NCBI GenBank assembly: GCA_964486835.1
Contig: CAZAPB010000001.1
Coordinates: 1 to 33,821 of the forward strand
DNA from: an uncultured Planctomycetia bacterium
Lineage (GTDB): Bacteria > Omnitrophota > Gorgyraeia > 2-02-FULL-51-18
DNA length: 33,821 bases
Direction: 5' to 3'
The notes below the pieces were generated by a model. It was not told where the DNA came from. It saw nothing but the letters and a program-made list of their open reading frames with translations, and did no database searches. Positions 8,159 to 9,770 of the stretch are shown here, in pieces. Positions within the stretch are counted from its first letter, which is position 1. Each line of letters starts with the position of its first letter. A program made the position numbers and the translations under genes.

Positions 8159-8217
8159 TAATTGTTACTAAATTCTAGCAAAGCAAAGGAGGAAAGAAAT
8201 AATATTTCGTCATACTA

Positions 8218-8246
8218 TTGATTTTTAGTCAAAATACTGCTATTAT
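8218..8246 (+). promoter_or_regulatory. candidate sigma70 promoter for the major pilin genes (TTGATT-17 nt-TATTAT)
   Basis: Hexamers at 8218-8223 and 8241-8246 with an exact 17-nt spacer, in the AT-rich 130-nt gap between pilC and the first pilin gene. Confidence 0.45.
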
Positions 8247-8288
8247 TTAATTGGGTTGATAGTAAACAATTAACATAAGGAGAATAAG

Positions 8289-8684
8289 ATGAACGGTATA
8301 AATAGATTGAGAAATCTTAAAGGTTTTACATTAATGGAAGTACTTATTGTGCTGGTGGTTTTAGCAATTATTGTTAGTTTGGCTATACCTATCTATTCGC
8401 AGTCAGGTAAAAAAACGTATAAAGCTGAGGCTTTTAATATACTCAATGGTTTACGTAATGCGCAGGTTAGGTACTATTCTATGCAGACAGGCTCGAGGTC
8501 GTATTCTACAAGTTATACGGATATTGAATTTGACCCAACTGTAGTAGCTGGTACGCCGCATTTTACTTATTCCGTTGCTGCGGGTGTTGGTACGTTTCTT
8601 GCTACGGCAACCGGTTCCACTGGAGTAATCACTGGAAGCACAGTAACAATTGATCAGGCGGGTGCGATTGGTGGGAATCTATAA
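8289..8684 (+). CDS. type IV (pseudo)pilin, copy 1, likely major subunit
   Basis: Class III signal: leader MNGINRLRNLKG, then FTLMEVLIVLVVLAIIVSLAIP with Glu at +5. AAGGAG RBS 6 nt upstream. The mature part is identical to copy 2. Confidence 0.9.
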   Translation: MNGINRLRNLKGFTLMEVLIVLVVLAIIVSLAIPIYSQSGKKTYKAEAFNILNGLRNAQVRYYSMQTGSRSYSTSYTDIEFDPTVVAGTPHFTYSVAAGVGTFLATATGSTGVITGSTVTIDQAGAIGGNL

Positions 8685-8691
8685 TAAGTTA
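8320..8691. repeat. tandem direct repeat unit 1 (372 bp, identical to 8783-9154 wherever I compared by eye)
   Basis: With an offset of 463 nt the match starts at 8320/8783 and ends at 8691/9154, with mismatches immediately outside both ends. Confidence 0.85.
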
Positions 8692-8763
8692 GAGGTGCTG
8701 TTAACGTAAAAGGATATTAATGGCAAGCTGAGAAGCAATCATAAGTTTTTAATGAGGTGATGA

Positions 8764-9147
8764 ATGATAAATAAGCATCGTCAAGGTTTTACATTAATGG
8801 AAGTACTTATTGTGCTGGTGGTTTTAGCAATTATTGTTAGTTTGGCTATACCTATCTATTCGCAGTCAGGTAAAAAAACGTATAAAGCTGAGGCTTTTAA
8901 TATACTCAATGGTTTACGTAATGCGCAGGTTAGGTACTATTCTATGCAGACAGGCTCGAGGTCGTATTCTACAAGTTATACGGATATTGAATTTGACCCA
9001 ACTGTAGTAGCTGGTACGCCGCATTTTACTTATTCCGTTGCTGCGGGTGTTGGTACGTTTCTTGCTACGGCAACCGGTTCCACTGGAGTAATCACTGGAA
9101 GCACAGTAACAATTGATCAGGCGGGTGCGATTGGTGGGAATCTATAA
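8764..9147 (+). CDS. type IV (pseudo)pilin, copy 2, with mature sequence identical to copy 1
   Basis: Leader MINKHRQG, then the same FTLMEV... sequence to the stop codon. It has its own GAGGTGA RBS. Confidence 0.9.
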   Translation: MINKHRQGFTLMEVLIVLVVLAIIVSLAIPIYSQSGKKTYKAEAFNILNGLRNAQVRYYSMQTGSRSYSTSYTDIEFDPTVVAGTPHFTYSVAAGVGTFLATATGSTGVITGSTVTIDQAGAIGGNL

Positions 9148-9154
9148 TAAGTTA
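8783..9154. repeat. tandem direct repeat unit 2 (372 bp)
   Basis: See unit 1. The 91-nt spacer and the leader-coding parts are unique to each copy. Confidence 0.85.
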
Positions 9155-9200
9155 AGGGGGCTAGGGCACGTTAAGGTTATATTGCTTGAGGGATAAAATT

Positions 9201-9232
9201 GTGCTTCTTGAAATAGAACAGAAAAGAAGCAC
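9201..9232 (+). terminator. weak hairpin downstream of the duplicated pilin genes (possible partial terminator or attenuator)
   Basis: 9-bp perfect stem GTGCTTCTT (9201-9209) / AAGAAGCAC (9224-9232) with a 14-nt loop. No T-tract follows, so it is not a canonical intrinsic terminator. Confidence 0.25.
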
Positions 9233-9323
9233 GGGAAAGGGTTTATAGATGAGTGCATAGTAGCGTTCGAACGTAATTAACTAATATATTTAATAGATTG
9301 GCGAGTTAGTCGTCTATACGCGG

Positions 9324-9770
9324 ATGAAAGTTAGCATGAAAAACCATCGAACAGAATTTGGTTTTACGCTTATGGAGATCATGATTGCGATAGCAGTTAT
9401 GAGTACGATGGTTGGACTAGCGATTCCTTTGTATTCTTCAACAATCGAGGCATCGCGTTCAAATGAAGCCAAGGCCAATCTTTACACAATCTACATGGCT
9501 GAAAAAGTTTATCGGTTGAATAACGACTACTGTTATCCATACAGCGCCACACCGGTGACAAATATTGCCTTAATCAACAACAACCTTAATATCGAAATAA
9601 GCTCTCAATATTATACAATTGAACTTTTTTCGAATACACTCTCAGGTAGTCTAGCGGGATTTACCGCGACAGCAAAAAGAAATAATGCTGGAGCTAAAAT
9701 TTTTACATTGACATACGCAGGGAGTGCTGATACCGCTACTCCATCAATAGTTGAGACGGGAAGTTATTAG
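9324..9770 (+). CDS. type IV pilin-like protein (third pilin, distinct sequence)
   Basis: Prepilin motif EFG|FTLMEIMIAIAVMSTMVGLAIPLY. The ATG at 9336 is an alternative start. Confidence 0.85.
   Translation: MKVSMKNHRTEFGFTLMEIMIAIAVMSTMVGLAIPLYSSTIEASRSNEAKANLYTIYMAEKVYRLNNDYCYPYSATPVTNIALINNNLNIEISSQYYTIELFSNTLSGSLAGFTATAKRNNAGAKIFTLTYAGSADTATPSIVETGSY

Follow-up and report, generated by a model that had tools for sequence, protein, structure and literature searches.

Two adjacent genes in a pilus locus of an Omnitrophota bacterium specify the same mature pilin behind different leader peptides, and the question is how their bodies came to be identical while their 5' ends are not. An earlier note, made from the letters of this DNA alone, had offered two origins, a very recent duplication or gene conversion. 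The whole stretch analysed here (33,821 nt, referred to as the window) comes from a short-read MAG of 1.42 Mb (182 contigs, 69% complete), and the search set comprised 41 genomes, that is, the window's own and 40 relatives.

Two predicted pilin genes with one mature product

According to the ORF list, gene 1 (positions 8289-8684, forward strand) codes for a 131-aa prepilin with the leader MNGINRLRNLKG, and gene 2 (8764-9147, forward strand) for a 127-aa prepilin with the leader MINKHRQG. Cleavage at G|FTLMEV would release the same 119-aa mature pilin from both, as the earlier note had concluded, and the mature coding sequences show mismatches at 0 of 363 positions. The cleavage regions read ...KG|FTLMEVLIVLVVLAIIVSLAIP in gene 1 and ...QG|FTLMEV... 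in gene 2. The second leader cannot be extended upstream, being preceded by an in-frame TGA (8761-8763), and tandem stop codons (TAATAA) close both genes.

The features of a class III signal peptide are present in both ORFs: a short basic leader, Gly(-1), Phe(+1), Glu(+5), and about 20 hydrophobic residues. Moreover, the Pfam family N_methyl (PF07963) is matched with E = 7.8e-7 (28.9 bits against a cut-off of 21.2), and phmmer searches against the PDB return Geobacter PilA-N (3e-8), PilA (9laa, 2.5e-6, residues 4-115), and Neisseria PilE (2hi2, 1e-5, residues 13-119). From these matches, both genes are predicted to encode a type IVa-like major pilin. An AlphaFold2 model built on a five-sequence alignment (mean pLDDT 53.6) is too poor for a fold search; it shows a helix at residues 15-65 followed by three strands, an order compatible with the pilin fold. 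Both leaders are short, basic, and Gly-ended, so the same peptidase should cleave both. A prepilin peptidase (Peptidase_A24, 69 bits) is encoded elsewhere in the genome, on contig G000:C130.

Extent and edges of the repeat

A base-by-base comparison of 8320-8691 with 8783-9154 (both on the forward strand) gives 0 mismatches over 372 nt at an offset of 463 nt, and a repeat search and the ORF list of the window agree with this result. Thus, the exact direct repeat that the earlier note had matched by eye, with mismatches immediately outside it, stands at 100% identity in the self-comparison of the window that the note had recommended. Beyond the repeat, 8319 and 8317 are the first mismatched positions before its start, and 8692 and 8693 those after its end; outside both ends, the agreement drops abruptly to the random level. 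An exact repeat of this length cannot arise by chance in 33.8 kb, and there is a high probability that the feature is real.

The glycine codon of the cleavage site in gene 1 occupies 8322-8324, so the repeat begins 2 nt upstream of it and not 3 nt, as had been counted. Its other end lies, as described before, 7 nt past the stop codon (TAA, 8682-8684). The GC content also needs correction: the repeat has 40.9%, where about 35% had been estimated, against 47.6% for the window and 45-49% for the adjoining genes. The identical tract (372 nt) is shorter than the period (463 nt), and a third copy of the repeat is absent from the genome as recovered in this 69%-complete, 182-contig MAG.

The spacer and the expression signals

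Between the two copies lies a unique spacer of 91 nt (8692-8782, forward strand), which contains a Shine-Dalgarno sequence (GAGGTG, 8754-8759) 4 nt ahead of the start codon (ATG at 8764) and the leader codons of gene 2. Gene 1 has its own Shine-Dalgarno sequence (AAGGAG, 8277-8282, forward strand), with the ATG 6 nt further. Local alignment of the spacer with the outer flanks gives p = 0.15 for the upstream and 0.54 for the downstream side (5,000 shuffles). A relationship between the leaders suggested by eye (GATGAAYG..ATAAATA in the DNA; I-N-R versus I-N-K in the peptides) was dropped in view of these values against shuffles. Also, no homologue of leader 2 or of the spacer was found.

Upstream of gene 1, a consensus scan recovers the sigma-70-type promoter-like site that the earlier note had placed at 8218-8246 (forward strand; TTGATT, 17 nt, TG-n-TATTAT), which would function as the promoter of the pair. 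It aligns with sites in two other species: TTGATT/TTGCAT-17-TATAAT precedes the orthologous pilin gene at the equivalent position in L115 and L116. Leader 1 and its promoter are conserved across three species. The note had trusted no promoter for copy 2, and the same scan finds no promoter-like site on the forward strand of the spacer. No significant hairpin is present in the spacer either (z = -0.27).

The hairpin that had been noticed after gene 2, at 9201-9232, is real and extends over 9199-9234 (forward strand), with an 11-bp stem, a 14-nt loop, and a predicted energy of -13.1 kcal/mol (z = -4.3; 0 of 200 shuffles equally stable). It has no T-run, and the scan calls no canonical intrinsic terminator, neither here nor between the copies. 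Placed between the major pilin genes and the pilin gene that follows them, it might stabilise the mRNA or act as an attenuator, and the orthologous pilin genes of L116, L035, and L037 likewise have a hairpin 3' of them. Judged by these signals, the pilin message would be bicistronic and highly expressed, the signs of high expression being a strong Shine-Dalgarno sequence, the tandem stop codons, and the conserved promoter.

Tandem pilin copies in related genomes

Tandem copies of the first (major) pilin gene are common in the lineage, and their identity forms a continuum. At one end, the paralogs of G005 and G001, which belong to the same genus as the window's genome, share 45-52% of their amino acids, and the closest two-copy relative (P0003/P0004, on one ENA contig) has copies that are 85% identical at the amino acid level, in patches. 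In G013, G015, G008:C2, and L040, the paralogs are 74-89% identical in nucleotides. At the other end, near-identical tandem pairs were found in at least 8 of the 41 genomes, several of them with unlike leaders: 95.1% in G004, 99.0% in G019, 97.6% and 99.2% at two loci of G003, and 100% in G021 (mature coding sequence), G008:C4, G033, G036 (two loci), and L056.

These near-identical pairs are of two kinds. In G008:C4, G033, and G021, the tract and the period almost coincide (583/593, 752/760, and 556/555 nt, respectively), and from this arrangement they look like fresh whole-unit duplications. The remaining near-identical pairs of the relatives have unique spacers, like the window.

Where the copies differ, the differences are not scattered. 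For example, the pair of G004 has a clean core of 162 nt with the differences clustered at both ends (p = 0.0005). In G003:C5, 9 of 9 differences lie inside 67 nt, a clustering that 20,000 random placements never equalled; eight of the nine are synonymous. In G019 and G003:C60, the differences are confined to the outermost codons and are all synonymous. A mosaic is seen in copy 3 of L056, whose 5' half has diverged and whose 3' half is about 97% identical. That the differences in the relatives' pairs are mostly synonymous points to purifying selection on both copies.

Moreover, in a maximum-likelihood tree the paralogs cluster by genome in 8 of 8 cases, and the pilin identity between genomes is 30-59%, compared with 100% within the window's genome. 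The mosaics, the edge-clustered differences, and this grouping by genome together indicate concerted evolution by gene conversion with occasional new duplications. The comparison with related genomes that had been proposed gave both outcomes, homogenised and mosaic pairs on the one hand and fresh duplications (the three mentioned above) on the other.

The pattern is not specific to the phylum, because 2 of 49 unrelated metagenomic pilin loci taken as a control also carry tandem repeats of at least 85% identity. A 34-mer from the repeat has no exact match in the JGI metagenome contigs, and a profile scan of the same contigs recovers distant pilins only, whose identity over most of their length does not exceed 39%. 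The Omnitrophota literature that was searched makes no mention of duplicated pilins.

Probable homogenisation of an older duplicate by gene conversion

Considering these data, the best explanation is probably that an older duplicate of the major pilin gene has been homogenised by gene conversion, with dosage as the probable reason for keeping it. A simple tandem duplication yields an identical tract as long as the period, with a junction made of the two outer flanks. The pair in the window would not be such a fresh duplication, because its tract is shorter than its period and its spacer is unlike the outer flanks. The spacer has instead the look of the 5' end of an established gene, since a ribosome-binding site is followed in it by a start codon and by a basic leader that runs in frame up to the cleavage glycine, a combination that a chance junction would not yield. 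Hence, of the two origins put forward in the earlier note, gene conversion is favoured, by the short tract and the unrelated spacer here and by the mosaics and the genome-wise grouping in the relatives, whereas a simple recent tandem duplication is disfavoured. As far as the sequence can tell, the identity of the gene bodies looks secondary.

The following course of events is proposed. The duplication would be the older event, and each gene starts with a ribosome-binding site, a start codon, and a leader of its own. Later, homologous recombination, as gene conversion, unequal exchange, or both, and presumably with the help of RecA, would recently have overwritten what could still be aligned between the copies, a stretch that opens with the Gly-Phe-Thr-Leu-Met-Glu N-terminus and closes shortly after the stop codon. 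A search for RecA found none in the 69%-complete MAG, but all 12 relatives searched have it, 5 of 5 of the same genus among them. Both genes would probably be read on one transcript that starts at the promoter at 8218-8246, with the hairpin at 9199-9234 ending or stabilising it. The prepilin peptidase of contig G000:C130 would remove both leaders and thus yield the same 119-aa mature pilin from both genes, and two genes per transcript would double the translation of the pilin, the likely benefit being supply. We infer conversion as the cause, co-transcription, the cleavage of both leaders, and the dosage benefit from the arrangement described.

An old shared origin of the two leaders can be argued from the spacer, with flanks that hold no significant residual homology (p = 0.15 and 0.54). 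The timing of the duplication admits a second account. Because the closest clade includes a member with a single copy (L116), one- and two-copy states are mixed there, and parsimony does not distinguish independent duplications from a single old one followed by losses.

This mixture also bears on the reading that a single recent event copied only the mature-coding part, behind an unrelated leader or together with filler DNA, and that the identity reflects youth with no conversion afterwards. Zero differences across 372 nt are what a young copy would show, fresh whole-unit duplications do exist in the three relatives named above, and repeated gains in the closest clade are as parsimonious as one gain with losses. 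However, the tract falls 91 nt below the period, and the spacer, which resembles neither outer flank, nonetheless brings a Shine-Dalgarno sequence, an ATG, and a basic leader that is in frame and has the cleavage glycine as its last residue. Pasting a mature cassette in frame behind an existing leader would itself be an event of the conversion type. Moreover, the edge-clustered and mosaic differences in the relatives are typical of repeated conversion, and we therefore regard one-event copying as unlikely.

Homogenisation of an older duplicate also has a consequence for the number of copies: a perfect direct repeat of 372 bp should gain and lose copies by recombination, so that the copy number may vary within the population. 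A bolder version of this idea makes the repeat a reversible copy-number switch, with cells of one, two, and perhaps three copies that would differ in pilin supply. This would be doubtful on present evidence; it takes as a real one-copy allele the contig considered in the following section.

Copy number and the assembly

The product of gene 1 was found elsewhere only in one Logan contig of 960 nt (run SRR12261223), and there in a one-copy form: a single repeat stands between the upstream and downstream flanks, at 100% identity. The 127-aa product of gene 2, the full PilC product, and the product of the third pilin gene are not on record in other assemblies. Any of three things would produce the one-copy form: an allele that really has one copy, a deletion by recombination across the repeat, or the clipping of a poorly covered loop in the assembly graph (k = 31). 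The Logan contig cannot settle the copy number because the assembly of this run is too fragmentary, the full PilC product and the third pilin product being missing from it.

The contig does justify the caution, expressed in the earlier note, that a perfect repeat is a place where assemblies collapse or expand. The copy number and the exact identity rest on one contig of a short-read MAG; the copies could exceed two, and the merging of bubbles in short-read assembly could erase a few true differences between them. In this case, the arrangement would be an artefact, with a true copy number of one or of more than two, or with slightly different copies flattened into identical ones. The fragmentation of the MAG into 182 contigs at 69% completeness, the one-copy Logan contig, and the lack of a record of the gene 2 product in any other assembly agree with this possibility, as does a scaffold gap of 100 N inside the pilin array of L056, which indicates that assemblers struggle at such arrays. 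Nonetheless, the spacer, with its 91 nt, fits inside one read and is bordered by the repeat at either end; single reads must therefore have joined the repeat end, the spacer, and the repeat start, and the content of the spacer is gene-like. The Logan assembly of SRR12261223 is itself so fragmentary that the clipping of a low-coverage loop would give the same collapsed contig. Moreover, pairs with 1-5% differences in relatives, from several independent assemblies, cannot come from collapse. Taken together, an artefact appears quite improbable. A strain chimera formed in co-assembly was set aside as contrived, given a spacer shorter than a read with the repeat on both sides.

Are the distinct 5' ends selected?

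The leaders and the contexts of the ribosome-binding sites are unlike, as the earlier note had pointed out, and the two copies could be kept for what these ends do in regulation, translation, or the kinetics of processing. Selection for different 5' ends, and not only a divergence that hinders recombination, would then halt conversion where the leader ends. Ten near-identical pairs were examined, and in 5 of them the start of the tract lies no more than about 15 nt from the glycine codon; a hairpin between the copies in G004, G003, and G019 suggests separate transcription units in those genomes. However, no promoter-like site lies ahead of copy 2 in the window, and the same peptidase should cleave both leaders. 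Furthermore, the tract covers the leader and the ribosome-binding site in G003:C5, G021, G036:C41, G008:C4, and G033, so distinct leaders are not conserved. A functional split between the copies is thus very unlikely.

Comparison with known duplicated subunit genes

Tandem flagellin genes of Campylobacter jejuni, flaA and flaB, are described in PMC5126078 as about 95-100% alike, with the differences at the gene ends and in the upstream regions, and their concerted evolution is credited there to Meinersmann and Hiett (2000). On that account, these genes resemble the Omnitrophota pair in being two adjacent subunit genes of one surface filament, with recombination credited with homogenisation in both cases, and flaA/flaB would be the closest analogue in working. 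The filament is a flagellum in one case and a type IV pilus in the other. In Campylobacter, the two genes have separate promoters (sigma-28 and sigma-54) and a division of labour into major and minor subunit. The Omnitrophota pair, on the other hand, has identical predicted mature products and shows no second promoter.

Legionella pneumophila offers a second comparison, with the adjacent predicted type IVa major pilins PilA2 and PilA1 (genes pilA2-pilA1), which are about 72% identical and of which only PilA2 forms pili (PMC13170364). Here, as in the window, two adjacent predicted major type IVa pilin genes occupy one locus. However, the differences between pilA2 and pilA1 run along the whole length and the genes are diverging, whereas the Omnitrophota pair would be homogenised.

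Gene conversion among the pilin sequences of one genome also recalls pilE and pilS of Neisseria. In that system, the donors are silent, promoterless, 5'-truncated cassettes unlike pilE, and conversion generates diversity. In contrast, both copies in the window are complete, identical, and adjacent, and conversion would remove diversity. Antigenic variation of the Neisseria type was rejected for this locus; both copies have a Shine-Dalgarno sequence, a start codon, and a leader, they are identical, and the genome as recovered has no further copy of the repeat.

Set beside these systems, the arrangement is real but ordinary, and it reveals no new mechanism. For annotation, it marks the pilus operons of Omnitrophota as a site where short-read assemblies may misstate both copy number and identity. 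As natural history, the duplicated major pilins of the sampled genomes range from 45% to 100% identity and include clear conversion mosaics. With respect to biology, it suggests that the supply of pilin is important to tiny, probably host-dependent cells, and, much more speculatively, homogenised tandem major-pilin genes could be a trait shared by ultrasmall, host-dependent or predatory lineages that rely heavily on pili.

Genes around the pilin pair

Finally, the pair is embedded in a pilus operon of the PilM/O-secretin-PilB-PilC type. Relatives of its PilB protein carry the label Candidatus Omnitrophota or, in third-party assemblies, 'uncultured Planctomycetia'. Directly upstream are genes for a PilM-like protein, PilO, a secretin, a T2SSE/MshEN ATPase, and a T2SSF platform protein. 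Downstream, a third and different pilin-like gene (9324-9770, forward strand; ORF list and Pfam) codes for 148 aa with the cleavage site G|FTLMEI and sets the downstream limit of the duplicated unit; it is accompanied by genes for three proteins with Peptidase_S74 tails and two minor pilins. The orthologues of this third gene ('pilin B') come after the pilin A copy or copies in the relatives. A PilT-family ATPase (426 bits) is encoded at a distance, on contig C37 of the same genome.

Copy number of the pilin repeat and its counterparts in relatives

The locus is also present with one copy of the repeat in an independent assembly, where a contig of 960 nt (Logan SRR12261223_415093) joins window positions 8207-8319 to a single repeat and then to 9155-9626, at 100% identity. 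This one-copy form may represent a genuine allele in which one repeat was deleted, or else a loop of low coverage that collapsed during assembly.

Tandem pilin copies are found in relatives as well. In a genome of the same class (G036), two separate loci, on contigs G036:C41 (L026) and G036:C13 (L029), each carry a tandem pilin pair, the copies being 100% identical over 476 and 421 nt and their upstream regions unlike. A related contig (L056, CAYJVR010000001.1, 10122-11660) holds three copies in tandem, the first and second showing no differences as far as a 100-N scaffold gap. The third is a mosaic: its 5' half has diverged, whereas its 3' half is about 97% identical. RecA was not detected in the whole genome of the window, a MAG that is 69% complete, and is present in 12 of the 12 relatives searched; its gene probably sits on an unbinned contig.

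Transcription and base composition

A -35/-10 pair lies 5' of the first pilin gene at 8218-8246 in the window, at about 560-590 in locus L115 and at about 325-355 in locus L116 (TTGATT or TTGCAT, 17 nt, TATAAT or TATTAT, with TG or GG upstream), its position being kept across three species whose pilins are just 48-59% identical. In the spacers of three other loci (L033 of genome G004, L035 and L037), a strong GC-rich hairpin separates two near-identical pilin genes; this placement suggests that, in contrast to the window, these copies are separate transcription units. The GC content of all three window pilin genes (8289-9770) is 39-41%, compared with 45-49% in the surrounding machinery genes.

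Filament systems

Beyond the ATPase of the window, the genome encodes four more T2SSE-type ATPases and PilT (contigs C119, C12, C99, C106 and C37); judging from these genes, it possesses several type IV filament systems although it is only 1.4 Mb in size. Separately, another Omnitrophota MAG (L047, CAZCLW010000005.1, 10395-15214) carries ten consecutive pilin-like genes behind PilB/PilC, several of them with a C-terminal Cys-Pro-Trp ending.
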